Positions 3,934 through 37,016 of a DNA stretch of 64,000 nt are shown here, piece after piece. The notes under the pieces were generated by a model. The model was not told where the DNA came from, did not search any database, and saw only the letters and a list, made by a program, of their open reading frames with translations. A program made the position numbers and the translations under genes. Origin of the DNA: an uncultured Anaerolineaceae bacterium (lineage in GTDB: Bacteria; Chloroflexota; Limnocylindria; Limnocylindrales; CSP1-4). The stretch spans positions 1,329-65,328 of the forward strand of contig CAZABC010000004.1 in assembly GCA_964483405.1 (NCBI GenBank), written 5' to 3'. Within the stretch, counting starts at the first letter, position 1. Every line of letters begins with the position of its first letter.

Positions 3934-4017
3934 GTCACCGAGTGAACCATACCGACGGAGGCGCCGTGCATCGCCCGTGGCGAGCGATGCCCCGACGCCC
4001 GCGGCCGATCGGCGTCC

Positions 4018-11514: not shown

Positions 11515-13029
11515 TCAGCCGCGCGGCGCCGCCGTGATCGCGCCCTGTGGCTCGACGACCGTGAGCGTCCCGCCGTACATCCCCATCGAACAGGTGTAGG
11601 CGATCGTCCCGGGCTCGAGCGGCGGGAGGTCGATGACGTTCTCGCCCTTCGCGAGCGTCACGGCGATGTCGAGCGTCGGGACGACGAGGAAGACCGCGCA
11701 CGACCGCGGCTCGAGCGAGTCGACGATCCAGCGGGTCGGCAACCGCGCGTAGAGGGCCGTGTCGGCCGGCAGATAGCCGTCGGCGACCTGGAAGGTCCGC
11801 AGGGTCTGGACCCCGTCCTCGATCGTGACGACCGGGGTCGGGCCGCCGCCGGCCGCGTCCCCGCCGCCGGCTCCGCCGACGGTCGCGGCGACGGCGTCGA
11901 GCGATGGCGAGAGGCCGAGCAGCCGCAGGCCGGCCATCCCGTTGACGAGGGCGAACCCGAGGATGACGACGCCGATGACCCGCAGGAGCGTCGGTCGCGA
12001 CGCGGCCGGGAGCAGGTTCGGCAGCCCACCGAGGGCGAGAAGCCCGGGGGCGGTCCCGAGCGCGAAGACACCCATGATCGCGCCGGCATGGAGCGGCTCG
12101 CCGGTGGCGAGGGCGACGACCTGGACGGCCTGGGTGAAGCCGCAGGGCAGGAAGAACGAGGCGGCGCCGAGGACCGCGGCCCGCGTGTCCGAGTAGGTCG
12201 AGGCCGCCGAGGCGTCGACGCCGAGCGCCCGGGCGAGGCCCGTCGGGAGGGTCGGCGACCAGGCGGCGATGCGCGGCGAGATCCCCGTCAGGCGCGTCCC
12301 GAGGAGGGTCATCAGCAGCGCCACGACGATCATGAGGACCGCGGTGAGGACTGGCGGCATCGAGATCGAGGCGCCGACCGCGCCGAGGAGCGCTCCGAGC
12401 ACGGCGAAGCCGACGACGCGTCCGCCGACGAAGACGGCGCTCGGCCGGAGCCGCATGCCGATCGAGCCATCGGCCGTCTCCGGGTGGCGGGCGGCGAACG
12501 TAGCCGACAGGGCCAGGACGAGCCCGCCGACGAGCGCGAGGCAGGTCGAGACGCCCGCGGCGAGACCGAGGAGCAGGGCGACGACGAGGCCGCCCTCGGC
12601 GAGGTCGCCGGCGCTCGAGGCGAGATCGGTGAACCCCGTCAGCTCGGCGAGGGCGACGATGGCCGCGACGACGAGGAGGCCGAGCCCGGCCGTCGCCCAG
12701 ACGGCCCGGTCGCCCGAGAGCCACGGCGACCGGCCGATCGCGTAGCCCGCCGCCTCGATGGCGGCCGCGAGCTCGGCGGTCGACACCGGGCCGGCCGCCT
12801 TGATCCGGACCCTGCCCGCGACCGCCGACGCGGAGACGCCGACGACGTCGGGCAGGGCAGCGAGGTGGTGCTCGATCCGTCGCTCGCAGGTCCGGCAGGT
12901 CATCCCGGCGACCGGCACGTCGAACGAGGTTGGCACGGGCGCAGGCCGAACCGCCGCGGGCTTGTGCGCCTTCGCGGAGGACGCCGGTCGGGGACGACGG
13001 GACGCGCCGGACATGGGCCGAGCATGCAT
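11515..13029 (-). CDS. HMA-domain, DsbD_2/TauE-like membrane domain and C-terminal cupredoxin-like domain fusion. Putative copper-handling membrane protein.
   Basis: N-terminal heavy-metal-associated motif GMTCRTCERRIE, about 8 TM segments with FFLPCGFTQAV, and a C-terminal soluble domain with YTCSMGMYGGTLTVV. Confidence 0.75.
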   Translation of the reverse strand: MHARPMSGASRRPRPASSAKAHKPAAVRPAPVPTSFDVPVAGMTCRTCERRIEHHLAALPDVVGVSASAVAGRVRIKAAGPVSTAELAAAIEAAGYAIGRSPWLSGDRAVWATAGLGLLVVAAIVALAELTGFTDLASSAGDLAEGGLVVALLLGLAAGVSTCLALVGGLVLALSATFAARHPETADGSIGMRLRPSAVFVGGRVVGFAVLGALLGAVGASISMPPVLTAVLMIVVALLMTLLGTRLTGISPRIAAWSPTLPTGLARALGVDASAASTYSDTRAAVLGAASFFLPCGFTQAVQVVALATGEPLHAGAIMGVFALGTAPGLLALGGLPNLLPAASRPTLLRVIGVVILGFALVNGMAGLRLLGLSPSLDAVAATVGGAGGGDAAGGGPTPVVTIEDGVQTLRTFQVADGYLPADTALYARLPTRWIVDSLEPRSCAVFLVVPTLDIAVTLAKGENVIDLPPLEPGTIAYTCSMGMYGGTLTVVEPQGAITAAPRG

Positions 13030-13143
13030 GCGCCGGAGCGAATGCGTCGGGGCCCGACCGGCCCGAAGCGAGGGGCCGGTGGTCCCGTGCGAGCGCCGCC
13101 GACGGCGGCGCGGCGACGCCGCCCGGCCCTCGTCGGATCCGGC

Positions 13144-14250
13144 CTACCCCTGGCGCAATGGCGGCATCGGGACCGGGATGTCGAGCATCGTCGCACCGAC
13201 GCCGACGCCGCCCTCGCACGTGTTCGGTGGTTGTGTCCCGATACCGCGCGTCGAGGGCTTCTCGGCCGCCCAGAACATGAACCCGAGCATCCCGGGCGTC
13301 GCGCCCGCCAGCTTCGGCTCGACGGTCCGGACGAAGGTAGCCGTCGACTGCTGGAGCGAGGAGGCGAAGGTCGAGCACTCGGGCCGGACCCGCGAGCCTT
13401 CGGCCACGTAGACGCTGCCGGTGAACCTGGCCGGGGCGAGCGGCGGGATCGGCGGGTCGTACTGCGGCTTGCCGTCGACGTGCTCCTGCCAGTTCGCGAT
13501 CGCCGCGGAGGTCGACGGCTGCTTCGAGGGGACCATCGCATTCGCGTAGTCGAGGACCGGCGCGTCGGTCCGGAGCCAGTCGGCGGTCGCCTTGCGGGTG
13601 ATGCCGATGAGCCAACGGTCGCCCGCCGCGAGGTCGATCGTCAGCCGCGCCGCCGGGTTCGCGCCCGTCGCGTCATACGGATGGATCGCCCGGTAGGCGG
13701 TGATGAAGGCCTGCAGGCCGGTCAGGTCCGGGCTGCGGTTCTCCTCGTAGTCGATCTCGATGCCGACGCCGAGGTCCGTGGCCAGCTCGGCGGCCGCCCG
13801 ACCGAGGCCCGCCGCGTCCTTCGCGAGCGCCTGGTTCCAGGCCTTCGTGTAGGTGATGCCGCCGATCGACAGCATCACCCTGATCCCGTGTGACGTGAAG
13901 TACTCGACGATCGCCGGGGTCATCCCCTTCGGGACACCGCCGACCGTCGTCGCGTCGGTCGTCCCCTCGAGGAGCTTGAGCGGATGGACGAACGAGAGGA
14001 CGACGAGGTTGACCGACGGGCGTCCGTCGCCGCGGTCGACGAGCCAGTGGTTCATGGCATCGAACTCGTCGACCCCCCGGGCCCGGCCCCAGGTGCAGTA
14101 GTCGTCGGAACAGTGCCAGGCGCCGTAGACCTGGAGCTGGACGGCCTCGGCCGCCCGGACGCCCCGGGCGCCGGCGACCGGCGACCCGGTGCCAGCAAGG
14201 CCCGCGAGCATCGCGGCAAGGATCGAGATCGACACGAGGCGACGGCCCAT
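13144..14250 (-). CDS. Secreted glycoside hydrolase family 18-like (chitinase-like) protein.
   Basis: Signal peptide (MGRRLVSISILAAMLAGLAGTGSPVAGARG) and a GH18-like catalytic-motif region (LGVGIEIDYEE). The family assignment is tentative. Confidence 0.55.
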   Translation of the reverse strand: MGRRLVSISILAAMLAGLAGTGSPVAGARGVRAAEAVQLQVYGAWHCSDDYCTWGRARGVDEFDAMNHWLVDRGDGRPSVNLVVLSFVHPLKLLEGTTDATTVGGVPKGMTPAIVEYFTSHGIRVMLSIGGITYTKAWNQALAKDAAGLGRAAAELATDLGVGIEIDYEENRSPDLTGLQAFITAYRAIHPYDATGANPAARLTIDLAAGDRWLIGITRKATADWLRTDAPVLDYANAMVPSKQPSTSAAIANWQEHVDGKPQYDPPIPPLAPARFTGSVYVAEGSRVRPECSTFASSLQQSTATFVRTVEPKLAGATPGMLGFMFWAAEKPSTRGIGTQPPNTCEGGVGVGATMLDIPVPMPPLRQG

Positions 14251-14329
14251 CGTCTGCTCCTCCAGGGCGGCTCACCGACGGCAGCGTACGCCGCAGCGCG
14301 GGTGCGACGCCACGGCCGGACGGCCCCGA

Positions 14330-14347
14330 CGGTGCGACGACGCACCG
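14330..14347. terminator. Hairpin CGGTGCG-ACGA-CGCACCG downstream of the oxidase subunit I gene.
   Basis: 7-bp GC-rich stem with a 4-nt loop in the 150-bp gap after the oxidase stop (14402, minus strand). No U-tract follows. Confidence 0.2.
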
Positions 14348-14401
14348 GGGGCCGCGGCCCGACCGAGGCTCGTGATCCGATCGAGGGGCCGTGGCCTTGG
14401 C

Positions 14402-16045
14402 TCAGGCCGGCGTCGGCGCGCTCGTCGGCGGTGGCAGCAGCGAACCAGGGGCGAGCTTGGACGGCAGGAAGATCCCGATCGCCCCCTTCAGGCCGACGGT
14501 CATCACGATGTTCAGGAGGAACGCGAGGAGCGCGAGCAGCAGGAGCCCGCCGCAGAGTCCGGCCAGGATCATGAACAGCTCGTACTCGTCCTCGTAGTAG
14601 ATCGTCCGCCGGAGCATGCCCTGCAGCCCGGCCATGCCCATGAAGGCGCCCATCCCGATCCCGCCGACGAGATGGGCCCAGAAGTGGAAGGTCGCGAGCT
14701 TCTGGCTCCACAGCTTGGCCCCGTTGGTCAGGATGGGCAGCAGGAGATAGATGGCCGAGTAGAGGGTCATCGTCAGGCCGACGAGGACCGCGACGTGGAC
14801 GTGCGGGCCGATGACCCACTGCGTGTTGTGGAGGATGCGGTTGAGGCCGACGTCGGCCTGGAGGATGCCGGCGGCCACGCCGAGCCCGAACCCCGTCAGG
14901 CCACCGAGCAGGAACTTCAGCTCGTTGGTCATCTTGAGCGGCCTCGCGGTCCAGAGGGTCGCCAGCGTGATGAAGAAGGCCAGACCCTGGGTGACGAGCT
15001 CGAACGCGGTCACGAGCTCGCCGGAGACCACCTTGAGCATCGCCGGCTGGGCCTGGTCCGAGAGGAGGTGATGGGACCACACCGTCCACGACACGACGAG
15101 CTCGAGGAGCAGGGCGGCCCGGGCCACGTTGGCCATGAAGACCGGCTTACCGGTGATCAGGTTCGCGAGGAGGTACCAGGTGCCCGCGACCCAGATGAGG
15201 ACGAGACCGTCGGCGATGAGGTCGAGACCCCACCAGAAGAAGTTCTTGTAGAGGAGGGCGTCGACGATCGTCGACTGCAGGGAGATACCGACGGCCGCGG
15301 CGACGAGGAAGATGAGGATGAGGATGCCGCTCGCCAGGATGACGAACGAGTTGAGCAGCGCGTCGACGGCCCCGCGGGCGATCGCCGCCACCGCCAGCGG
15401 CACGGGCTCCTCGCTCTCCGGGCGCCGCCTGGCGATGTTGCGGAACCCGGTCAGGCCGATGGCCGACCGGAAGAGCGGACCCTTCGGCTGATGGGGCTCG
15501 CCCTTCGGCGTGTAGAGGATCGTCGCGAACACGTTGAGGACGAACAGCAGCGTCCCGAGCATCACGAGCGCAACGCCGACGATGAAGATCGAGCCCGCCA
15601 CCGGGTCGAACTGCGACGTGTCGGCCGGCAGCGGCCAGTACAGCGTGTACAGCGGGGCGTAGTGCGTGATGAAGCCGTCGAACCAGAACACGAAGGTGCC
15701 GATCGCGATCAGCCAGAACGTGGCCTGGGCCGCGCGGAAGCTCCAGAGTGGCTTCTTCATGAGGAACGGGACGAGGAACAGGAACGCCCCGAAGGCGATC
15801 ATGTAGGTCGAACCGAAGATGCCGACGAGCGGGTGCGCCGTCAGGATGCCGAAGTACTGGTCGGCCGGGATGAGCGGGATCGGCTCGACGGCGTAGATGC
15901 GCATGATCCCGCCCTCGATCGCGGCGAAGGCGTAGTAGACGAGACCGACGATCACGAAGCGAAGCGTCAGCTTCTGCATCGGGGTCATCGTCTCTGCCCG
16001 GAACGCGCGCTGGTTCCCCTGGACCAGCGTCTCGACGATCGTCAT
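14402..16045 (-). CDS. Heme-copper oxidase subunit I family protein (NOR-like or B-type oxidase catalytic subunit).
   Basis: 547 aa with 12 or more TM segments. The WSHHLLS HH motif (CuB ligands) and conserved His in HVHVAVL and HFWAHLVGG are present. The HPLVG motif lacks the A-family HPEVY tyrosine. Confidence 0.8.
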   Translation of the reverse strand: MTIVETLVQGNQRAFRAETMTPMQKLTLRFVIVGLVYYAFAAIEGGIMRIYAVEPIPLIPADQYFGILTAHPLVGIFGSTYMIAFGAFLFLVPFLMKKPLWSFRAAQATFWLIAIGTFVFWFDGFITHYAPLYTLYWPLPADTSQFDPVAGSIFIVGVALVMLGTLLFVLNVFATILYTPKGEPHQPKGPLFRSAIGLTGFRNIARRRPESEEPVPLAVAAIARGAVDALLNSFVILASGILILIFLVAAAVGISLQSTIVDALLYKNFFWWGLDLIADGLVLIWVAGTWYLLANLITGKPVFMANVARAALLLELVVSWTVWSHHLLSDQAQPAMLKVVSGELVTAFELVTQGLAFFITLATLWTARPLKMTNELKFLLGGLTGFGLGVAAGILQADVGLNRILHNTQWVIGPHVHVAVLVGLTMTLYSAIYLLLPILTNGAKLWSQKLATFHFWAHLVGGIGMGAFMGMAGLQGMLRRTIYYEDEYELFMILAGLCGGLLLLALLAFLLNIVMTVGLKGAIGIFLPSKLAPGSLLPPPTSAPTPA

Positions 16046-16638
16046 CGCGTCACACCCGCTTCCTCGGACGTCGTGCAGCCGGCGACCTCGACGGCGTCCT
16101 CGACGACCATCCGGTGCCCTTCGGGGCCGGAGTACTCGGTCGAGCGGATGTCGTAGACCCCGTTCTTGTCGAAGGTCCAGATCACGTCATTCCGATGACC
16201 CGGGACGACCTGCATCTGGAAGACCATCGAGTGGTCCTGTCGGAAGAGCCCGAAGCCGTACGTGAGATCCGCGGTCGTGACATCGAAGGCGACCATGTCG
16301 CCGCAATCGATGAGCAGCCGCTCGGCCGGCAGCGTGAAGGCGTGCTCGGCGACGGTGATCTCGAAGGTCTTGTCGGGGGTGACCGCCTCGCGATCGAGGT
16401 CGACCTCCACCCACGGGATCGTGTTCGCGCTCACGAGATGGAGCGACACCCCGGTGACGACGAGGACGCCCGCCCACCCGACGAAGAACCACGTCGGGAC
16501 CGTGTTCGACGAGCCGACCCTGGTCACCTTGTAGGCGAAGGCGCCGACCACGACGAGCACCGCGAGGGCGTACAGCGTGTAGACGAGCGCCTGCCCCCAC
16601 AGGACGACGCTCGAGTCGACAGGGCCTGGGTCGGGCAT
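16042..16638 (-). CDS. Heme-copper oxidase subunit II-like cupredoxin protein with a degenerate CuA site.
   Basis: One N-terminal TM segment plus a cupredoxin domain. The CuA-like segment reads STEYSGPEGHRM, with Ser where the CxExCG cysteines should be. The gene is translationally coupled to subunit I (4-nt overlap). Confidence 0.7.
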   Translation of the reverse strand: MPDPGPVDSSVVLWGQALVYTLYALAVLVVVGAFAYKVTRVGSSNTVPTWFFVGWAGVLVVTGVSLHLVSANTIPWVEVDLDREAVTPDKTFEITVAEHAFTLPAERLLIDCGDMVAFDVTTADLTYGFGLFRQDHSMVFQMQVVPGHRNDVIWTFDKNGVYDIRSTEYSGPEGHRMVVEDAVEVAGCTTSEEAGVTR

Positions 16639-19437: not shown

Positions 19438-20649
19438 ATGACCGACCACGCCGCCACCCACCCGCTCCTCGTCGAAGCTCGCGCCGACCTGCCCGCGATC
19501 GTGGCGGTCCGGCGGCGGCTCCATCGCCATCCGGAGGTCGGCCTCGAACTGCCCTGGACCCAGGCCGCCGTCGCCGAGGCGGTCGAGGGCCTCGGGCTCG
19601 CGCCGGCGCTCGGCCGGTCGGTCGGATCGGTGACCGCGACGATCGAGGGCGAGCGACCCGGCCCCACGATCCTCCTGCGGGCCGACATGGACGGCCTCCC
19701 GCTCCACGAGGACACCGGGCTCGACTTCGCCTCCGAGATCGACGGCCGGATGCACGCCTGCGGCCACGACACCCACGTCGCGATGCTCCTCGGCGGCGCC
19801 CGGCTCCTCCTGCGACGGCGAGCCCAGCTCCGCGGGCGGGTCCTGCTGATGTTCCAGCCCGGAGAGGAGGGGTTCCACGGGGCCCGGTCGATGCTCGAGG
19901 AGGGGCTGCTCGACACCGCGGCCGCCGCCCCGGTGACCCGGGCCTTCGCGATCCACATCAGCACCCAGTACGCCACCGGCGCGGTCCACCTCCGGGCGGG
20001 CGCGCTGCTCGCGAGCTCGGACACGATCCGGCTGACCGTCCGGGGCCGTGGCGGCCACGCCTCGGCTCCGCATGCCGCACTCGACCCGATCGCCGTGGCG
20101 GCCGAGATCGTCCTCGCCCTCCAGGCGATGGTCGGGCGGCGGATCGACGTGTTCGACCCGGCGGTCGTCACGATCGCCCGGTTCGCCGCCGGCACGACGA
20201 GCAACATCATCCCCGAGACCGCCGTGCTCGAGGGGACGTTCCGGACCGTCTCGGACGAGACGCGGGCGACGGTCCGCCGGCGCATCGGCGAGGTCGCCGA
20301 CGGGATCTGCGCCGCCCACGGCGCGACCGCCGAGCTCGAGATCGAGGCCGGCTACCCGGTGACGGTCAACGACGCGGCGGTGGCGGCCAGCGTCGCGGAC
20401 ACAGCGGCCGCGCTCGTCGGGGTCGCCGACGTGGCCGAGATGCCATCACCGATCATGGGCGCCGAGGACTTCTCGTACGTGCTCCAGCGGGTCCCGGGCG
20501 CGATGGCCTTCCTCGGCGCGACGCCCCGCGACGACGACCCGACGACCGCGCCGGCCAACCACTCGAACCGGGTCGTCTTCGACGAGGCCGCGCTGCCCGT
20601 CGGCGCCGCCCTCTACGCCGCGGTCGCGCTCGAGCACCTCGCCGGCTGA
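19438..20649 (+). CDS. M20D-family amidohydrolase (hippurate hydrolase / aminoacylase-like).
   Basis: LRADMDGLPLHEDTGLDFASEIDGRMHACGHDTH metal-binding signature. ATG at 19438 inside a longer artifact ORF. Confidence 0.85.
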   Translation: MTDHAATHPLLVEARADLPAIVAVRRRLHRHPEVGLELPWTQAAVAEAVEGLGLAPALGRSVGSVTATIEGERPGPTILLRADMDGLPLHEDTGLDFASEIDGRMHACGHDTHVAMLLGGARLLLRRRAQLRGRVLLMFQPGEEGFHGARSMLEEGLLDTAAAAPVTRAFAIHISTQYATGAVHLRAGALLASSDTIRLTVRGRGGHASAPHAALDPIAVAAEIVLALQAMVGRRIDVFDPAVVTIARFAAGTTSNIIPETAVLEGTFRTVSDETRATVRRRIGEVADGICAAHGATAELEIEAGYPVTVNDAAVAASVADTAAALVGVADVAEMPSPIMGAEDFSYVLQRVPGAMAFLGATPRDDDPTTAPANHSNRVVFDEAALPVGAALYAAVALEHLAG

Positions 20650-20657
20650 TGGTCGGC

Positions 20658-20677
20658 GACCGGCGCCGACGCCGGTC
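20658..20677. terminator. Hairpin GACCGGCG-CCGA-CGCCGGTC between convergent genes.
   Basis: 8-bp GC stem spanning the 27-bp gap between the M20D stop (20649) and the PDO-rhodanese stop (20676). Confidence 0.3.
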
Positions 20678-22133
20678 AGGCCGGGACCGCCGCCTCGGCC
20701 GCCTCGGCCGACCCGAGGGCGGCCTCGAAGCGCTCGGCCCAGCCGACGACCCCGCCGCGCCCGACGAGGCGGGCCGGGATCCCCGCGGCGTCGAGCAGGC
20801 TCGCCGCCATCGACGCTCGGTGGCCGGTGGTACAGACGACCCACCACTCGCGGTCCCCCGCGAGGCGGTCGATCGCGCCCGGCAGGTCGGCGACGAAGAT
20901 CCGCTCGGCCCCCGCGATCGCCCCGTCGTCGCGCCACTCGACGGGCTGGCGGACGTCGAGGATCGCCACGTCGCGGCCCGCCTCGACCCGGGTCTCGAAC
21001 AGCTCGCGCATCGTCGCGGTCGGGTACGAGCGGAGCTCGCGGCCGCTCGCGACCCAGGTGTCGACGCCGCCCGCGAGGCGCCCGACGATCCGGCCGTAGC
21101 CGATCCGGAGGAGCTGGACGACGGCCTCCTCGGCCGCCTCGGCGGCCCGGCTCGCCGGCTCGGGCAGGACCAGGACGACCGGCGCGTCGAACGGCAGCAG
21201 CCAGCCGACGTACGTCGAGAACGCCTCGGTCAGCTCGATGTTGACCGAGCCCGGGAGGTGGCCGGCGGCGAACTCGGCCCGGTCGCGGGTGTCGACGACG
21301 ACCGCGCCGGCCATGGCGAGCCGCTCCACCTGGGCGGGTGGCAGCGCGGCGACCGGCCGGGGCGCGCCGACGACCGGCGGGCCGGCCCGGTTGATCGGGC
21401 CCATGTGGGCGTAGTACGCCGGGAACCGGCCGAGGACCCGGAGCTGCTCGTCGAAGAAGGCGGCCTCGTCGGCGGCCAGCATCGCGGCGTTCGTCCGGCG
21501 CTCACGGCCGACGCTCGTGACCTGGCCGGCGCCGGGCACGTTGGCGACGCAGAACGAGCCGGCGCCGTGGGTCGGGTAGACGTCGACATCGTCGGGCAGC
21601 GCGGCGAACGCCCGGATCGTGGCGAACTGGGCCCGGGTCAACGCCTCGGTCGCCTCGGGCCCGACGAGGTCGGTCCGGCCGGCGCTGCCGATCAGCAGGC
21701 TCCCGCCGCTGAAGATGCCCTCGGGCGCCTGGTCCGGCAGGCCCGGGATCCGCTTGCCCGCACCGTCGAGCCGGTGGAGGTCCCAGGCGACGTGCTCGAA
21801 CGTGTGGCCGGGCGTCGCCCGGGCGACGAGCCGGAGTCCGCCGACCTCGACCGCCTCGCCGGCCTCGACGGGCCGATGCGGGAAGGCGTAGCCACCGAGC
21901 GCGGGGGCCAGGATCTCCGCGCCGGTCGCCGCGCGGACCTCGAGCGCGCCCGACACGTAGTCGTTGTGGGCGTGGGTCTCGAGGACGTACCGGACGCGCC
22001 AGCCGCGGCGCTCGGCGACCGACAGGAAGCGCCACGCATCGCGCTGCGGGTCGACGAGCGCGGCCTCGCCCGCCGAGGCGACGAGGTACGAGCTGTCCCC
22101 GAGCCCCGGGGTGGTGAAGACTTCCAGGTCCAC
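20676..22133 (-). CDS. Persulfide dioxygenase (MBL-fold) fused to tandem rhodanese domains (CstB-like).
   Basis: ETHAHNDYVSG HxHxDH metal site and MBL fold, followed by two rhodanese domains. The second has the active-site motif VVCTTGHRAS. GTG start at 22133, 6 bp after the TusA stop. Confidence 0.85.
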   Translation of the reverse strand: MDLEVFTTPGLGDSSYLVASAGEAALVDPQRDAWRFLSVAERRGWRVRYVLETHAHNDYVSGALEVRAATGAEILAPALGGYAFPHRPVEAGEAVEVGGLRLVARATPGHTFEHVAWDLHRLDGAGKRIPGLPDQAPEGIFSGGSLLIGSAGRTDLVGPEATEALTRAQFATIRAFAALPDDVDVYPTHGAGSFCVANVPGAGQVTSVGRERRTNAAMLAADEAAFFDEQLRVLGRFPAYYAHMGPINRAGPPVVGAPRPVAALPPAQVERLAMAGAVVVDTRDRAEFAAGHLPGSVNIELTEAFSTYVGWLLPFDAPVVLVLPEPASRAAEAAEEAVVQLLRIGYGRIVGRLAGGVDTWVASGRELRSYPTATMRELFETRVEAGRDVAILDVRQPVEWRDDGAIAGAERIFVADLPGAIDRLAGDREWWVVCTTGHRASMAASLLDAAGIPARLVGRGGVVGWAERFEAALGSAEAAEAAVPA

Positions 22134-22138
22134 GCCGG

Positions 22139-22378
22139 CTACGCGCTCTTGCGGACGTAGAACACGAGGGCGCCGTCCTCTTCGCCGCTCGCGACGAGCT
22201 CGTTGCCCGTGTCGTCCGCCCAGGCGGGCACGTCGGCCCTCGCCCCGCGGTCGGTCGCGAGGAGCTTCACGACCTGGCCGGGCTCGGCTGCTCGCAGCTC
22301 CCTGTTGAGCATGACGATCGGCATCGGACAGAGATGGCCGCGGGCATCGAGCACGCGGTCGGCGACGATCGGATCCAT
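22139..22378 (-). CDS. TusA-like sulfurtransferase (SirA/YedF/YeeD family).
   Basis: 79 aa with the CPxP motif LDARGHLCPMPIV. Confidence 0.8.
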   Translation of the reverse strand: MDPIVADRVLDARGHLCPMPIVMLNRELRAAEPGQVVKLLATDRGARADVPAWADDTGNELVASGEEDGALVFYVRKSA

Positions 22379-22392
22379 GGTCCCTCGGACGG

Positions 22393-23085
22393 TCAGATGA
22401 ACAGGGTGACGTGCGACTTGCGGGCCTCGGAGAGGAACGCGGCCGCGCCACCGAACTCGACGCCGTCGATGAACTGGTCCTCGGCGAAGCCGAAGACCTC
22501 CATCGTCATCTGGCAGGCGATGAGCCGGACGCCGGAGTCACGGGCGACGTCGAGGAGCTCGCGGATGCTCGCCACGCCCTTGCCCTTGAACTTGGACTTC
22601 ATCATCGACGTCGCCATCGGCGTCATCCCCGGCAGCGCGGTCACGAGCTGCGGCATCGGTACCGGCATCGGCATCGCCGGGTTGCCGGTCGTGCCGACCT
22701 GGAGCCGCGACTCGAAGTCGCGGTGGATGATATTGAGCCCGTAGAAGGTGAAGAAGATCGCGGTCTCCATCCCGGCCGCGGCCGCCGCGGTCGACAGGAT
22801 GAGCGGCGGGTAGGCCCAGTCGAGCGTGCCCTTGCTCGCGATGAGCATCGCCCGCTTCTTTGCGGGGTCGGTCCGGAACGCGCGCTCGACCTCCTCGCGG
22901 ACGATCCGGCGAACGTCGTCCTCGTCCACCGCGACGGCCCGGGGGCCAGGTTCGAGCGCCGTCAGGACCGGGGGCGCAGCCTGGGCACGCACCGGATCGG
23001 CAAGCGTCATCGGTGTCCTCCCTGCCGGTGCCACCCACCGGGGCGCGCGTCTCCGGGCGGGACGCGCAGAAAGCATACCGGACAA
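22393..23085 (-). CDS. DsrE/DsrF-like family protein.
   Basis: KKRAMLIASKGTLDWAYPPLILSTAAAAAGMETAIFFTFYGLNIIH core and a conserved Cys in RLIACQMTMEVFGF. The true start may be the internal ATG (MTLADPV, about 23010). Confidence 0.75.
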   Translation of the reverse strand: MSGMLSARPARRRAPRWVAPAGRTPMTLADPVRAQAAPPVLTALEPGPRAVAVDEDDVRRIVREEVERAFRTDPAKKRAMLIASKGTLDWAYPPLILSTAAAAAGMETAIFFTFYGLNIIHRDFESRLQVGTTGNPAMPMPVPMPQLVTALPGMTPMATSMMKSKFKGKGVASIRELLDVARDSGVRLIACQMTMEVFGFAEDQFIDGVEFGGAAAFLSEARKSHVTLFI

Positions 23086-23143
23086 GTAGGGATTATGCGA
23101 GCCGGCGCCCGTCCCGGCGCCCGGCTCCGCGTGCTCGACGCGG

Positions 23144-23794
23144 TCAGCCCTCGACCGGGGCCGACACGCCGCGCCGGTCCTCGGGGTGCTCGCCGCTCGG
23201 CGGACCGACCTCGTGGTGGCGGTTGCAGCGCGCCTCGTACGTCTCGATCGCGTGATCGTCGAGCCCGCCGATGACCACCAGCGGGTCGTCGAGCGCGGCC
23301 GGCCGGCCGTTGACCAGACGCTGCGTCCGGGTCGCGGTCTCGCCGCAGATGACGCAGATCGCGGTGAGGGTCGTCACGTCGTCCGCCCGGGCGAGGAGCT
23401 CCGGCATCGGCCCGAACGGCCGACCCGCGAAGTCGAGGTTGAGGCCGGTGACGATGACGTGCCGACCGCTGCGGCGGATCGCCTCGACGACGTCGACGAT
23501 CTCGGGAACGAAGAACTCCGCCTCGTCGATGCCGACGAGGTCCGCGTCGGACTCGCGGGCGAGGGCGAGGATCTGCCAGGGGTCGCCGGTCGGGACGACC
23601 CGGCTCGGATAGCGGGCCTTGCTCCGGCTCTCGGCGAACTCGGGTGGGGTCCGGGTGTCGATGTCGGGCCGGACGAGGAGGACCCGACGCCGGGCGATCT
23701 CGGCGCGGCGGAGGAGGCGGAACAGCTCGTCCGACTTCCCGGACGACATGCAGCCGGCGATGACGTGGAGCCAGGGGTCGGCGCGATAGAACAC
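23144..23794 (-). CDS. tdk: Thymidine kinase.
   Basis: P-loop VIAGCMSSGKSDEL and a C-terminal zinc ribbon (CVICGETATRTQRL...CNRHH). Confidence 0.85.
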   Translation of the reverse strand: MFYRADPWLHVIAGCMSSGKSDELFRLLRRAEIARRRVLLVRPDIDTRTPPEFAESRSKARYPSRVVPTGDPWQILALARESDADLVGIDEAEFFVPEIVDVVEAIRRSGRHVIVTGLNLDFAGRPFGPMPELLARADDVTTLTAICVICGETATRTQRLVNGRPAALDDPLVVIGGLDDHAIETYEARCNRHHEVGPPSGEHPEDRRGVSAPVEG

Positions 23795-28600: not shown

Positions 28601-29398
28601 TCAGGCGGCGACGGGCGCGGCCGGCGGGGGTGCCGCCCGGCGCGGCCGGGCGCGACGGCGGACGGCCGCGGCGATGGCGACGACGAGCATCGTGGCGGCC
28701 CCGGCGGCCGCCACGAAGGCGACGGGCACCACGTCGACCTCCCTGACGGCGATGCCGGCGTAGGCCCAGACGATGACCAGGCCGTAGGCGGCGTCGCGGG
28801 TCAGCCAGGCGGCCATCCCGGCGATCGCCAGCCCGACGAGGAGGACGGCGGCGGCCCAGGGCTCGGGCGCGATCCCGAGCCCGGTGAAGCCGGCCCACGC
28901 CAGGACGGCCGCGACGTTCGTGATCGTGGCGACGGTGATCCAGCCGGTGTAGACGCTGAACGGGATCCGAACGGCCCACCGGGCGACGCCGGCCTCCGCC
29001 TCCCCACCGGCGCGGATGCGCCCGCCGATCGCGAGGAGCGTGACGAGCAGGCCGACCATCACGACGAGCGTCGCCGCGAGGATCTCCCAGTGCCAGAGGA
29101 CGATCCAGCCGGCGTTGAGGACGGCGACCATCGCCGGCAGGTAGCCGAGGCGCCGCAGCAGCGGGTCGTCGCGGCGCGACGGGAGGGCCTGGAAGGCCGT
29201 GAACGCGAGCTGGCCGAGATAGATGAGGCCCCAGATCGCGAAGACATAGCCGGCCGGGATGACGAGGACCTCGAATCGGTCGGAGATCTCGCCGGTCCGC
29301 AGGCCGTTGAGCGGCAGGGCGTTGGTCATGCCGTTGACGGCGATCGTGACGATGAACGCCAGGACGGTCACGACCTGGCGGAGGAGGTCTCGGGACAT
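28601..29398 (-). CDS. TspO/MBR-like tryptophan-rich membrane protein.
   Basis: 266 aa from the ATG at 29398 (MSRDLLRQV...). Five TM segments, with PAGYVFAIWGLIY and Trp-rich loops. The rest of the 497-aa ORF is artifact. Confidence 0.6.
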   Translation of the reverse strand: MSRDLLRQVVTVLAFIVTIAVNGMTNALPLNGLRTGEISDRFEVLVIPAGYVFAIWGLIYLGQLAFTAFQALPSRRDDPLLRRLGYLPAMVAVLNAGWIVLWHWEILAATLVVMVGLLVTLLAIGGRIRAGGEAEAGVARWAVRIPFSVYTGWITVATITNVAAVLAWAGFTGLGIAPEPWAAAVLLVGLAIAGMAAWLTRDAAYGLVIVWAYAGIAVREVDVVPVAFVAAAGAATMLVVAIAAAVRRRARPRRAAPPPAAPVAA

Positions 29399-29476
29399 GC
29401 TCGGGCTCCGGCGAGGCTTGGGTTCGCACCGACGATACGCGCGACGCTGCCGCGCGGATGGCGGTACCCTCCGCCG

Positions 29477-30256
29477 ATGACCGATACCCACGAGCTGCCC
29501 GAGCACGTCGCCCGGAACCGCGAGGCCTGGGACCGGTTCGCCGCCGACTACGTCGGCCCCGGCGAGCGGGCGTGGACCGAGGCCGAGCCCTCCTGGGGGA
29601 TCTTCGGCATCCCCGAGGCCGAGGTCGGCTTGCTGCCCGACGTCGACGGCCTCGACGTCATCGAGCTCGGCTGCGGCACGGGCTACGTGTCGGCCTGGCT
29701 CGCCCGGCGCGGGGCCCGGCCGGTCGGCATCGACAACTCGCCGAAGCAGCTCGAGACCGCCGCCCGCCTCCAGCGCGAGCACGGCATCGACTTCCCGCTC
29801 CTCCTCGGCAACGCCGAGCGGGTCCCCTACCCCGACGCCTCGTTCGACCTCGCGATCTCGGAGTACGGCGCGGCCCTGTGGGCCGACCCGCACGCCTGGA
29901 TCCCCGAGGCGGCCAGGCTGCTCCGGCCGGGCGGTCGGCTCGTCTTCCTGACCAACCACGTCCTCGCCTACCTGTGCGTGCCGGACATCGAGACCGACGG
30001 CCCGCCGGACGAGCGGATGAAGCGCCCCTACTTCGGGATGGGCCGGACGGAGTGGCCCGACAGCGAGGGCGAGATCGAGTTCCACCTGACCCATGGCGAC
30101 TGGATCCGGCTCCTCGTGGCCAGCGGCTTCGAGGTCGAGGATCTCGTCGAGCTGCGACCCGGGCCGGAGGCGACGACCACCTACCAGTGGATGTCGCTCG
30201 ACTGGGCCCGCCGCTGGCCGTGCGAGGAGGCCTGGAAGGCCCGCCGGCGCGGCTAG
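29477..30256 (+). CDS. Class I SAM-dependent methyltransferase.
   Basis: VIELGCGTGYVSAWLA SAM motif. ATG at 29477 inside a long artifact ORF. Confidence 0.8.
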   Translation: MTDTHELPEHVARNREAWDRFAADYVGPGERAWTEAEPSWGIFGIPEAEVGLLPDVDGLDVIELGCGTGYVSAWLARRGARPVGIDNSPKQLETAARLQREHGIDFPLLLGNAERVPYPDASFDLAISEYGAALWADPHAWIPEAARLLRPGGRLVFLTNHVLAYLCVPDIETDGPPDERMKRPYFGMGRTEWPDSEGEIEFHLTHGDWIRLLVASGFEVEDLVELRPGPEATTTYQWMSLDWARRWPCEEAWKARRRG

Positions 30257-30296: not shown

Positions 30297-32609
30297 CTAC
30301 CATAGGACGTCGAATCGGAGCAGCCGGATGACGTCGGACCGATCGTCGGTCAGCGGGCTCGCCGCCGGCTCGACGACCGACCAGCCGCGCTCGGTGAACC
30401 AGGCCACGTCCTCGGCGTCGGCGGTCGCCACGACCCAGTCTGAGGTCGTGATCCCGCGCTCGGCCTCGGCGTCGGTCGGGTCGTGCAGCCGTTCGAGCGC
30501 CGTCATCCCGAGCGGGGCGACCCCGGCGGCGATGGCCGGGGCGAGGGTGTAGTAGCGGCTCGAGACGTTCACGGCGAGGAGGCCGTCGTCATCGAGGACT
30601 CGGACGGCGTCCGCGAGCGCCTCCGCGGTGATCAGATGGACCGGCACCGCGTCCGAGGCGAAGGCGTCGAGGACGACGAGGTCCGCCGAGCCGGTCGGGG
30701 CCCGCTCGAGCTCGAGCCGCCCGTCGCCGATGACGACCGCGGCCGGCTGCTCCGCGTCGGCGAGGTAGGTGAACAGCGCCGCATCCTCGGCGACCCGTCG
30801 CATGACCTCGTCGATCTCGATGAACGTCATCGAATCGCCGGGGCGCTGGTAGGCCGCGATCGTGCCGGCCCCGAGGCCGGTCACGATCGTCCGGCGGGGC
30901 GCATCGGCAAGCCGCTCGTCGACCCGGACGACGACATCGCCGAGGGGGCCCTCGCGGCTGAAGTAGCCGGCCGGTTCGGCCCGCAGGGCGGGGTCGGCCG
31001 CCTGGAGCGAGTGGACGGTCGTCCCGTGACGGAGGACGGTGAAGTCCGGCGGCTCGGGCTGGAGGGCCTCGACGACGCCGAAGAAGCTCCGGTCGCGGAA
31101 CAGCGTCGGCGGCGGGTTCGCGACGGTGATGACGAGGACCCCGCCGAGGACGACGGTGAAGACCCGGACGTCACCGCCGAAGACGAGGATCGACGCTCCG
31201 ATGATCAGCCACAGGCTCGCGTCGGCGACCGCGACCGAGCGCGACATCGTGAGGAGGACGCCGAGGAGGCCGGCGACCGCGAGGTAGACCGTCAGGCGTC
31301 GGGTCGCCCCGGCGGTCGCCGGGGCGAGGTCGAGGAAGCGCGAGCGCGGCCGCCGGCGCCGGACCGGGGCGGCCGCGGCGGCGGCCAGGGTCGGGGTCAC
31401 GACCATCGCGACGCCGGCCGCGACGAGGAGGATCGGGTACTCCCAGACGGCCGGGAACAGCGACGGGGCGAGGACGCCGACGAACGCCCCGCCGATGACG
31501 CCGCCGAGCGCGACCGCGAGGTAGAAGGCGGTCAGGCGCGACGACGCGGGGCGGTCGTCGGCGAGGCCGCCGTGGAGGACGACGCCGACGATCGCCAGGC
31601 CGCCGTACTGCACCGCCAGGAGCGGCAGGACCGGCCAGTCGAGGGGCGCCGCGTACGGGACGGCGAGCAGGGTCAGCGCGATCGGGACGAGCCAGGCGAG
31701 CCGCCGCGCGATCGCCGGTCCGCGGCCGCCGAAGGCGACGACGAGGGTGACGAGGTAGGTCCCGAGCGGCCCGATCCACAGCAGCGGCGCGGAGATGAGG
31801 TCGGTCGCGATGAAGTTGGTGACGGCCGAGAGGAGGCCCGCGGGCACCGCCGCAAGGAGCAGCCAGCGGGCGACCCGGGCCGGGGCGAGTCGCTCCGCGG
31901 CCACGATGCCGGCACCCGTGCCCGGGCCCGCGGTCGGTCCTTCCGGCGCCGGGCGGACGGTCCGGGTCGCGACGACGACCCAGCCGATCAGCCCGGCGAG
32001 GACGACCAGCCCGCCGCCGAACAGCAGCCGCTGGAGACCGATCCCGGCGAGCGGCTCGACGACGAACGGGTAGGCGACGACCGCGACGAGGGAGCCCGCG
32101 TTGGAGACGGCGTAGAGGCGGTACGGGTCGCGACGGATGGCGTCCGCACCGCCGGGCTCGGCATCGGCGGCCGCGGGAGGCTCGCCGGCCGCCGTTCGCG
32201 ACGCCGGCAGCCAGCTCGAGAGGAGCGGCGTGGTCGCCGCGAGCGCGACCGCCACCGGCCCGACGGTCAGCGCGAGGACCCGCAACAGGTCGAGGACCGG
32301 CGGCAGCGACTCGACCCGCACATCGACGAACCGGTCGGGGGCGAGGACGAAGACGACGATCGCCCCGCCGAGCACGACGAGGTGGAGGAGGCCGCCGCGG
32401 CGGGGCCCGAGCCGGGTCGCCGAGACGTGGGCGTAGGCGTAGCCGGCAAGGAGCGCCGCCTGGAACGCGACGAGGACGGTCGCCCAGGCGGCCGGTGCGC
32501 CGCCGTAGGCCGGCAGGACGAGCCGGCCGACGAGCGGCTGGACCGCGAAGAGGAGGAACGCCGAGAGGGCGATCGCGGCGGCGGCGGGGACGATCGCGCG
32601 GGTCGGCAC
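30297..32609 (-). CDS. Fused multi-TM domain plus spermidine-synthase-like (polyamine aminopropyltransferase fold) protein.
   Basis: 770 aa. About 14 N-terminal TM segments, then a soluble C-terminal domain (TIVTGLGAGTIAAYQRPGDSMTFIEIDEVM...VVLDAFASD) of spermidine synthase/MTase fold. Confidence 0.75.
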   Translation of the reverse strand: MPTRAIVPAAAAIALSAFLLFAVQPLVGRLVLPAYGGAPAAWATVLVAFQAALLAGYAYAHVSATRLGPRRGGLLHLVVLGGAIVVFVLAPDRFVDVRVESLPPVLDLLRVLALTVGPVAVALAATTPLLSSWLPASRTAAGEPPAAADAEPGGADAIRRDPYRLYAVSNAGSLVAVVAYPFVVEPLAGIGLQRLLFGGGLVVLAGLIGWVVVATRTVRPAPEGPTAGPGTGAGIVAAERLAPARVARWLLLAAVPAGLLSAVTNFIATDLISAPLLWIGPLGTYLVTLVVAFGGRGPAIARRLAWLVPIALTLLAVPYAAPLDWPVLPLLAVQYGGLAIVGVVLHGGLADDRPASSRLTAFYLAVALGGVIGGAFVGVLAPSLFPAVWEYPILLVAAGVAMVVTPTLAAAAAAPVRRRRPRSRFLDLAPATAGATRRLTVYLAVAGLLGVLLTMSRSVAVADASLWLIIGASILVFGGDVRVFTVVLGGVLVITVANPPPTLFRDRSFFGVVEALQPEPPDFTVLRHGTTVHSLQAADPALRAEPAGYFSREGPLGDVVVRVDERLADAPRRTIVTGLGAGTIAAYQRPGDSMTFIEIDEVMRRVAEDAALFTYLADAEQPAAVVIGDGRLELERAPTGSADLVVLDAFASDAVPVHLITAEALADAVRVLDDDGLLAVNVSSRYYTLAPAIAAGVAPLGMTALERLHDPTDAEAERGITTSDWVVATADAEDVAWFTERGWSVVEPAASPLTDDRSDVIRLLRFDVLW

Positions 32610-36970: not shown

Positions 36971-37000
36971 CTGCGCGCAACAAGTGGCAACAACGCGCAG
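36971..37000. promoter_or_regulatory. Hairpin / direct-repeat element CTGCGCG-CAACAA-GTGG-CAACAA-CGCGCAG.
   Basis: 7-bp inverted repeat flanking two CAACAA direct repeats, in an unusually AT-rich stretch. It sits immediately upstream of the GGAG RBS and ATG (37017) of the GGDEF-EAL gene. Confidence 0.3.
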
Positions 37001-37016
37001 TCGGAGCCCCAAGCCG

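Follow-up and report, generated by a model that had tools for sequence, protein, structure and literature searches.

A sulfane-sulfur handling operon in an uncultured Anaerolineaceae bacterium, with a CstB-like persulfide dioxygenase from a clade without the iron-holding aspartate

In this work we analysed a stretch of 64,000 nucleotides (64 kb) from an uncultured Anaerolineaceae bacterium (contig CAZABC010000004.1, positions 1,329 to 65,328; the whole stretch is called the window below), and in it three co-oriented minus-strand genes at 20676-23010 that encode a DsrE2-like protein, a TusA-family protein and a CstB-like persulfide dioxygenase (PDO). The three genes are a genuine sulfane-sulfur handling operon, ordinary in kind; the oddity is the dioxygenase, whose clade lacks the aspartate that holds the iron. 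We consider it probable that the operon is a cytoplasmic module for the clearance of sulfane sulfur (persulfides and polysulfides), comparable to an unfused form of CstA and CstB from Staphylococcus aureus. With rather less than even confidence we propose a broader picture: a large CstB-like clade of Actinomycetota and Chloroflexota, undescribed in the literature we searched, may activate O2 at an iron held by three histidines (H54/H56/H110) or by two histidines and Asn57. Here it might be fed by a protein-persulfide relay of TusA and a single-cysteine DsrE2 with an N-terminal helix, not by low-molecular-weight persulfides, and elsewhere the same pair of carriers might serve an uncharacterised cytoplasmic molybdoenzyme.

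The iron site of the dioxygenase

Persulfide dioxygenases are textbook examples of non-heme iron enzymes with a 2-His-1-carboxylate site. In the 2026 structures of CstB the iron ligands are H56, H119 and D145 (preprint PMC12934615), and D154 of the human ETHE1 triad (H79/H135/D154) falls in the same alignment column as CstB D145. After correction for the 24-residue tag in the CstB structure 3r2u, the window protein keeps equivalents of CstB H56, H58, H119, R154, C201 and C408, namely H54, H56, H110, R153, C195 and C434. The equivalent of D145 is Gly144. The alignment at this point is gap-free, with F-S-G-G in the window protein for F-S-G-D, and is anchored by F-S/T-G and GR(T/P)DL. The second Asp of canonical proteins (in GDxGR) is also absent, and the last histidine of HxHxDH is a tyrosine. 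We looked for an alternative carboxylate near the D145 position and found none aligned; E113 is not specific to the clade and is His in Streptomyces.

The initial annotation of this DNA had named the lack of a 2-His-1-carboxylate site as the finding that would speak against a PDO, and read literally this is what the alignment gives. The missing aspartate does not make the protein something other than a PDO, because a member of the same clade, ScPDO (SCO0618), is reported to be active; the site is, however, not canonical.

The substitution is found throughout the closest homologues, all 120 of which have Gly at the D145 position together with the motifs (T/S)GGSLL and HxH-N-D-Y. Gly is found in about 109 of the best 150 representatives at 50% identity, and 90 of these carry Asn57; the 38 representatives with Asp carry Ala or Glu in place of Asn57. 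A-G, S-G and E-G states also occur. A neighbour-joining tree has one split that separates all 38 Asp-type sequences from 78 of the 81 Gly-type ones. The Asp-type, canonical set contains 3tp9, CstB, the split metallo-beta-lactamase (MBL) genes located after dsrE2-tusA in other phyla, and the second paralogue of Streptomyces. Within the Gly clade H54, H56, N57, D58, H110 and H189 are conserved at 97% or more.

A canonical His2Asp triad is ruled out because its Asp position is Gly144. As judged from conservation, the iron is most likely held by the three histidines H54/H56/H110, or by two histidines and the clade-specific Asn57. The strict covariation of N57/G144 versus A/D suggests that Asn57 may fill the space vacated by the aspartate. 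In a Streptomyces locus (L071) a Gly-type and an Asp-type CstB-like paralogue lie about 1 kb apart (1546-2823 and 3848-5179). Since both are kept side by side, the two types of active site seem not to be redundant.

Evidence for activity comes from ScPDO of Streptomyces coelicolor, the sole characterised Gly-clade member that we found. The purified protein consumes O2 in a reaction that depends on glutathione persulfide (GSSH), with a Vmax of 1.19 umol/min/mg and a Km of 94 uM, and deletion of sco0618 leads to more cellular sulfane sulfur (Lu et al. 2020, PMC7533328). The single guide RNA (sgRNA) for sco0618 in the same paper, ACCGGCGGTTCGCTGCTGAT, encodes TGGSLLI, which is the Gly-type motif. 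This 20-mer matches about 70 Streptomyces genomes. The matched genes share 40-43% identity with residues 3-451 of the window PDO and carry the Gly-type motifs; the next gene is TauE, in agreement with the published layout. On these sequence grounds ScPDO belongs to the Gly clade. Given the published activity of ScPDO, the window enzyme is by analogy probably active as a dioxygenase, its iron site being non-canonical. The change of ligand from Asp to Gly is mentioned neither in PMC7533328 nor in the CstB preprint.

Domain architecture of the dioxygenase

The dioxygenase has the three-domain architecture of CstB: an MBL-fold PDO domain, a pseudo-rhodanese domain free of cysteine and a catalytic rhodanese domain. 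Pfam finds Lactamase_B (E=8.5e-10) and two Rhodanese stretches (E=5.5e-19). Over its full length the protein can be aligned with the MBL-rhodanese protein 3tp9 of Alicyclobacillus (E=3.6e-62, residues 3-465), and it matches S. aureus CstB 3r2u with E=8e-37. Its AlphaFold2 (AF2) model has a mean predicted confidence (pLDDT) of 88.6 and gives a TM-score of 0.80 to 3tp9 and a TMt of 0.87 to 3r2u; the remaining top structural neighbours are all persulfide dioxygenases. The closest named relatives are from metagenome-assembled genomes of Candidatus Limnocylindrales, at about 63% identity.

In the catalytic rhodanese domain C434, G437 and R439 are invariant, giving the CxxGxR motif around the equivalent of CstB C408. 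The initial description of a CstB-like MBL-fold PDO, with a first rhodanese domain that lacks the catalytic cysteine and a second one with CTTGHR, therefore stands, and CstB has the same arrangement. Cys195 in the motif GSFC is likewise invariant. The next residue is Val, and in the clade this position varies between S, V and A and is not Gly. The low pLDDT of this loop is what would be expected of a mobile loop.

The two sulfur carriers

The DsrE2-like protein consists of a variable region (residues 1-29) that is disordered in the AF2 model, a conserved amphipathic helix (residues 30-46) and a DsrE/DrsE_2 core (residues 51-205). Its closest structures, by sequence and by fold, are 2qs7 (DsrE2B) and 3pnx, and the fold also matches 3mc3, 1jx7 and 2hy5. 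It thus aligns with and folds like DsrE/YchN proteins, a point on which the initial annotation had staked its assignment, and it combines this fold with a DrsE_2 domain and pairing with tusA. The catalytic cysteine that was to be checked is C166 in IACQMT, the only cysteine of the protein and invariant in 38 homologues.

In these 38 homologues the helix residues R34, I36, V37, E39, E40 and A44 are invariant too, and the helix consensus E..VRRIVREEIERAF..DPA, after a variable tail, is common to 120 homologues. An N-terminal extension had been described as unusual and about 70 aa long. It exists, but the part before the DrsE_2 domain is about 50 aa, and its helix, being conserved across the closest DsrE2 subgroup, is a trait of that clade and no peculiarity of the window gene.

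Two classes of DsrE2 could be separated from metagenome loci. In the classical class tusA precedes dsrE2, the protein has about 155 aa, two conserved cysteines and no N-terminal helix, and the NCBIfam DsrE2 model (NF047629) gives 266-283 bits. In the class of the window protein dsrE2 precedes tusA, the length is 178-208 aa, only the ACQMT cysteine is conserved, the helix is present and the score is 184-214 bits. The window protein itself reaches 201.3 bits, below the cut-off of 210. DsrE2A is defined by two strictly conserved cysteines (Liu et al. 2014, PMC4175335). The window protein has only C166, and the first cysteine (LC[IL]E in classical members) is replaced by Ala. By its one cysteine, its N-terminal helix and its score below the cut-off, the window DsrE2 is placed in a sister subgroup of classical DsrE2.

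The second carrier is, as first described, a 79-aa TusA with a CPxP motif, encoded between the DsrE-like and PDO genes. The motif is C17-P-M-P. Membership of the TusA family (PF01206) is clear, at 75.7 bits versus a cut-off of 28.6, and the E. coli-type TusA equivalog of NCBIfam is not reached (48 versus 78 bits). In nearly all related loci tusA adjoins dsrE2, and with the window-type DsrE2 subgroup it always lies directly downstream.

The upstream element and regulation

A short element upstream of dsrE2 (Table 1) has the pattern AATCCCTAC-NN-GTCC-N-GTATG-N-TTT. Between the window and locus L183, which is described below, the upstream regions have diverged, and this element is the only part that is conserved. 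The element is also found upstream of a lone PDO gene in L096, and a palindromic variant precedes dsrE2 in L108, L117 and L118; in L108 and L117 it belongs to an inverted repeat, CAACTACG-N14-CGTAGTTG. In about 3 Mb searched, 10 of 10 matches precede dsrE2 or Gly-type PDO genes, and the window has one match where 0.02 are expected. The element differs from the ScCsoR box and from the palindrome of ArsR loci, and holds a -10-like hexamer, TATGnT. We infer that it is a candidate promoter with an overlapping operator for a regulator that would be encoded elsewhere.

Among the 49 genes called in the window there is no CsoR/CstR (Trns_repr_metal) or ArsR/BigR/SqrR (HTH_5) regulator, no SQR and no TauE, and a tblastn search of the window with ArsR queries was also negative. 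The only sulfur-related gene outside the operon is a SulP gene at 2053-3933, about 17 kb away. The earlier statement that no regulator or SQR is adjacent thus extends to the whole window. When at most 2 mismatches are allowed, the CsoR/CstR operator ATACC-N6-GGTAT has 2 matches in the window versus 3.2 expected, and neither lies in the promoter region. In the gap between the thymidine kinase gene (tdk) and dsrE2 the only inverted repeat is a GC palindrome, CCCGGCGCC. A scan for sigma-70 consensus promoters found none, and an Rfam scan of 20400-23400 at E<=1 found nothing, so no known riboswitch or leader is present.

Several other loci (Table 1) have an AT-rich palindrome, TCAATTGACTAATTGA, in the short space that separates an ArsR-type regulator gene from a divergent Gly-type PDO gene; this palindrome is likely to be the operator of that regulator. 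No similar dyad is found in the tdk-dsrE2 gap.

Related loci

Contigs of the same species keep the order thymidine kinase, dsrE2, tusA, PDO and M20 peptidase, and four sister contigs have the thymidine kinase gene directly upstream of dsrE2. The more distant locus L183, with a PDO 66% identical to that of the window, keeps the three-gene cassette behind a different, divergent upstream gene. In L096 (6681-9407) the PDO gene stands alone within the same methyltransferase-FAD/BBE-thymidine kinase flank, of which the kinase is only an 84-aa fragment, and an alpha/beta hydrolase gene on the opposite strand occupies the place of dsrE2-tusA. Because a hydrolase takes this place within the same flank, the dsrE2-tusA pair was gained or lost recently in the lineage. 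Across relatives, dsrE2-tusA adjoins PDO-type genes in many independent arrangements.

A different setting of the carriers is found in at least 12 loci, on Acidobacteriota- and Actinomycetota-like contigs. In these, the gene for DsrE2 with the N-terminal helix overlaps the stop codon of a gene for a NarJ-like chaperone and comes after genes for a Fer4+NrfD protein and a molybdopterin subunit of about 980 aa. The order is an ArsR/BigR-like regulator (usual), a Fer4+NrfD fusion, the molybdopterin oxidoreductase, the NarJ-like chaperone, DsrE2 with the N-terminal helix and TusA, followed by an Asp-type MBL protein, a double rhodanese and then TauE or SulP. In Micromonospora-like loci a Gly-type PDO gene is instead divergent from the regulator gene. 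The molybdopterin subunit is 73-75% identical between loci and has no Tat motif, and its best NCBIfam matches (PhsA and TtrB) are far below the cut-offs. This operon looks to be a cytoplasmic oxidoreductase system for sulfur compounds, so far uncharacterised. The chaperone gene is also upstream in L101 (55% identity), the closest of the loci with a fused Gly-type PDO. Genes for a molybdoenzyme, NrfD or a NarJ-like protein are absent from the window.

These loci qualify the first description of the route as self-contained and atypical. It is right that no regulator or SQR is nearby, but relatives often have a lone Gly-type PDO gene with no regulator, the DsrE2 subgroup usually stands in the molybdoenzyme operon with an ArsR-type regulator, and the conserved element upstream speaks for a regulator that acts in trans.

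Proposed function and alternatives

For the clearance module that we favour, we infer a route in which TusA (Cys17) and the DsrE2-like protein (Cys166) would hold sulfane sulfur as protein persulfides and hand it to the CstB-like enzyme. In the MBL domain, Cys195 of the flexible loop would be persulfidated and then oxidised with Fe(II) and O2 to Cys-S-sulfonate. The S-sulfonate would be passed to persulfidated Cys434 of the C-terminal rhodanese domain, with release of thiosulfate (or sulfite), and the cysteine-free middle domain would have a structural role. The genes would form a transcription unit of their own behind the conserved promoter/operator. In the CstB crystal structures, loop Cys201 is self-S-sulfonated and the group is shuttled to Cys408 (PMC12934615), and both residues have equivalents in the window protein. 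A Bacillus cluster, yrkE-ydfQ, with homologues of DsrE, TusA and the PDO-rhodanese protein, is protective against sulfane sulfur (PMC9918477).

Several observations weigh against this reading. The canonical carboxylate ligand is missing, since the facial triad keeps its two histidines, H54 and H110, but has Gly144 at the Asp position. In place of the Cys-Gly dipeptide that serves CstB as a glutathione mimic the window protein has Cys-Val, and the clade does not conserve the dipeptide. The identity between ScPDO and the window protein is only about 41%, and the activity reported for ScPDO is modest. On the side of the carriers, archaeal DsrE2B (the 2qs7 family) showed neither a reaction with any sulfur compound in vitro nor an interaction with TusA (PMC4175335). 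The 64 kb contain no linked SQR, no sulfite/thiosulfate exporter and no sensor. Finally, the DsrE2 subgroup is mostly found in the molybdoenzyme operon, and its main partner may therefore be something other than the PDO.

This last point leads to an alternative in which dsrE2-tusA would be a detached accessory of a cytoplasm-facing, Psr/Phs/Soe-like molybdenum oxidoreductase. All three genes would then serve a molybdoenzyme encoded elsewhere in a dissimilatory or detoxifying conversion of sulfane sulfur to sulfate, the PDO making sulfite and the molybdoenzyme oxidising it. The gene order in the 12 or more loci speaks for it, as do the similarity of the molybdopterin subunits and their lack of a Tat motif, the chaperone gene in L101 and the TauE or SulP genes that end these operons. 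We nevertheless regard it as unlikely. None of the partner genes is in the window, thymidine kinase is kept directly upstream of dsrE2 in the sister contigs, the cassette has its own conserved upstream element, used also by the lone PDO of L096, and the weak NCBIfam matches of the molybdoenzyme allow no substrate to be assigned.

The missing aspartate raises the question whether the MBL domain of the Gly clade is a dioxygenase at all in this organism. It could be a hydrolase of thiosulfonates, persulfides or thioesters, possibly with another metal, or a non-catalytic scaffold for the rhodanese domain. The operon would then amount to no more than a sulfurtransferase relay, serving for instance the assimilation of thiosulfate or the thiolation of cofactors or tRNA. 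This would fit the loss of both aspartates and of the HxHxDH histidine, and the remaining 3-His site (site 1) is the hydrolytic zinc site of beta-lactamases. TusA is known for roles in molybdenum cofactor and tRNA thiolation. The Asp-type paralogue beside the Gly-type one in Streptomyces L071 could be read in the same way, and the PDO-rhodanese fusion PRF of Burkholderia phytofirmans has been proposed to act in sulfur assimilation, according to a citation in PMC7533328. However, ScPDO of the same clade used O2 with GSSH and its deletion raised sulfane sulfur, the loop and rhodanese cysteines of the oxidative CstB mechanism are invariant, and the closest structural neighbours are PDOs without exception; we therefore hold the loss of dioxygenase function to be improbable. 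That the three open reading frames are adjacent by chance, or are decaying remnants without a joint function, is effectively refuted by conservation. The absence of dsrE2-tusA from the syntenic L096 and the lower G+C of the two carrier genes would agree with it, but the reading frames are intact, with coding-type base composition, all catalytic residues are conserved, the cassette is kept in sister contigs and in L183, and the spacings are operon-like.

For this genome alone, the clearance module is of modest meaning, a housekeeping route for sulfane sulfur. The wider interest lies in the more than 100 clusters at 50% identity in which the carboxylate is swapped for glycine, with covariation, in a clade that includes the reportedly active ScPDO. 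This raises the question of how O2 is activated, for which G144D, N57A and H56A are mutational targets for enzymology. Annotation pipelines merge the two DsrE2 subgroups, of which the single-cysteine one with the N-terminal helix has distinct partners (a Gly-type or split PDO, and the cytoplasmic molybdenum oxidoreductase). Keeping them apart could help to find out what DsrE2 does, a point still unclear for model sulfur oxidisers too.

Gene models and neighbouring genes

The picture of three sulfur-trafficking genes packed on the minus strand is confirmed by their Pfam domains (Table 1) and by the G+C content at third codon positions (GC3), which is 0.91-0.98 in all three. The spacers had been given as 6 to 14 bp; read from the sequence they are 14 nt between dsrE2 and tusA (TGA 22393 to ATG 22378) and 5 nt between tusA and the PDO gene (TAG 22139 to GTG 22133). 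DEDDVRRIVREEVERAF was confirmed by direct reading. The G+C content of the window is 72-77%. That of the genes is 0.69-0.70 for dsrE2 and tusA versus 0.77 for the PDO gene. We considered horizontal transfer of dsrE2-tusA and rejected it: GC3 of the pair (0.91-0.94) is genome-like, and the low G+C is explained by the conserved sequence, rich in Met, Lys and Phe.

A longer open reading frame of 230 aa from TTG 23085 was rejected as the model of dsrE2. The start is ATG 23010, because a Shine-Dalgarno sequence lies 6 nt upstream, homologues begin at the equivalent position, sister contigs were independently called with 205, 79 and 485 aa, and the longer frame contains the conserved non-coding element. 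The record of the identical DsrE2 protein from the source contig also has 205 aa. For the PDO, a 591-aa open reading frame was likewise rejected in favour of 485 aa.

The flanks of the operon are unrelated to sulfur, with a thymidine kinase gene upstream on the same strand and a convergent M20 peptidase gene downstream. A GC hairpin in the convergent gap is possibly a bidirectional terminator without a T-run. A consensus terminator scan did not call this hairpin, and its sole call, at chance level, lies inside dsrE2. Beyond the peptidase are genes for an FAD/BBE oxidase, a methyltransferase, GSDH, an amidohydrolase, an MFS transporter, DUF1918 and a COX1-like protein.

Further away, 11515-16638 (-) is a run with a flavour of copper and respiration, with a DsbD_2 + HMA + cupredoxin fusion, a divergent COX1-like protein (547 aa), a 368-aa protein without a clear family and a 198-aa protein without a known family. 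Two open reading frames, 28601-29782 (-, 393 aa) and 30297-32609 (-, 770 aa), have strong coding GC3 and no Pfam match at E<=0.01. An HTH_17-GAF-GAF-GGDEF-EAL protein (36984-39671, +) and a LonC/LonB-like AAA protease (40594-43005, -) lie beside a CBS-BON protein and are unrelated to the operon.

Table 1. Coordinates of the operon, of its elements and of features in related loci (positions without an L label refer to the window)
Feature	Position	Strand	Remarks
dsrE2-like sulfur-carrier gene	22393..23010	-	205 aa; Pfam DrsE_2 E=3.4e-50
tusA-family sulfur-carrier gene	22139..22378	-	79 aa; Pfam TusA E=2.5e-21
CstB-like gene	20676..22133	-	485 aa, GTG start; MBL PDO + pseudo-rhodanese + catalytic rhodanese
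Shine-Dalgarno GGGAGG	23017..23022	-	6 nt before ATG 23010; direct reading
Conserved upstream element AATCCCTACTTGTCCGGTATGCTTT	23070..23094	-	about 60 nt before dsrE2 start; -10-like TATGCT
DsrE2 N-terminal helix E30-R46 (EDDVRRIVREEVERAFR)	22873..22923	-	conserved; AF2 helix, pLDDT about 84
DsrE2 Cys166 codon	22515-22513	-	IACQMT
TusA Cys17 codon	22330-22328	-	CPMP
MBL/PDO domain, aa 1-255	21369..22133	-	H54-A-H56-N57-D58-Y59, H110, G143-G144, R153, H189, loop Cys195
Gly144 codon	21704-21702	-	position of the canonical Asp ligand
Cys195 codon	21551-21549	-	loop of MBL/PDO domain
Pseudo-rhodanese domain, aa ~262-366	21036..21350	-	Pfam Rhodanese; aligns to 3tp9 middle domain; zero Cys
Catalytic rhodanese domain, aa ~372-470	20724..21020	-	Pfam Rhodanese residues 374-468; C434-T-T-G-H-R439, Cys codon 20834-20832
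GC hairpin CCGGCG-TCGG-CGCCGG	20660..20675	.	fills most of 26-nt gap between convergent PDO and M20 peptidase genes
Copies of upstream element	L183:385-399; L096:7793-7807; L108:652-667; L117:4008-4023
Palindrome TCAATTGACTAATTGA	L099:7931-8001; L119:1882-1952; L121:2039-2110		also L122 and L123
Molybdoenzyme operons	L180:3567-12103; L181:3351-12875; L182:3535-9594; L099:1226-7931		also L102, L103, L114, L119, L121-L123

Comparison with known systems

The cst operon of S. aureus encodes CstB (PDO-RHD-Rhod) and CstA (a Rhod-TusA-DsrE fusion) under CstR and together with SQR. The window PDO shares the three-domain architecture and fold of CstB, and CstA shares the DsrE and TusA modules. In contrast to CstB, the window protein has Gly144 for Asp145, HxHNDY for HxHADF and Cys-Val for Cys-Gly. 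The DsrE and TusA of the window are separate proteins, the DsrE being of the DsrE2 type with an extra N-terminal helix, and there is no CstR, SQR or TauE nearby that would make it a regulated operon of the cst kind. The Bacillus yrkD-yrkE-yrkF-yrkH-yrkI-yrkJ cluster likewise contains homologues of DsrE, TusA and the PDO-rhodanese protein, and protects against sulfane sulfur and cysteine stress (PMC9918477). Unlike the window, it also has a CstR-like repressor, a TusA-Rhod fusion, TauE, thioredoxin, NreBC, SQR and a second PDO.

The ScPDO circuit (ScCsoR-ScPDO-TauE-Rhod) shares the Gly-type clade with the window (TGGSLL, HxHNDY and THGxGSFC; about 41% identity over residues 3-451). The Streptomyces gene is accompanied by TauE and a CsoR-like repressor with ATACC-N6-GGTAT boxes and by no dsrE2-tusA, whereas the window has no such box at its promoter and lacks CsoR and TauE. 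PRF of B. phytofirmans (5ve3) is also an MBL PDO fused to a catalytic rhodanese, but has two domains, a canonical His2Asp site and specificity for GSSH, and its overall TM-score is much lower (0.42).

For the carriers, rhd-tusA-dsrE2 of Allochromatium vinosum (Alvin_2599-2601; DsrE2A) also pairs DsrE2 with TusA and a rhodanese, and both DsrE2 proteins have the NPAMPMPVPMP...LPGM..MAT.MMK loop and the ACQMT cysteine. The window differs in the reversed gene order (dsrE2 then tusA), in having one of the two cysteines and the extra helix, in its NCBIfam score (201 bits versus 266-283 for classical members, with a cut-off of 210) and in the absence of a Dsr or sHdr context. Archaeal DsrE2B (Mcup_0682; SSO1126, PDB 2qs7) is the best match among solved structures and shares the single conserved cysteine, but the identity is only about 29%, and DsrE2B lacks the N-terminal helix and stands in an sHdr context.

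The locus is a variant of known families and not a plain member of any, because it lacks the His2Asp triad and the DsrE2A cysteine pair and stays below the NCBIfam cut-off. In its operon logic it is closest to S. aureus CstA/CstB and Bacillus yrkE-I, and in its enzyme lineage to ScPDO.

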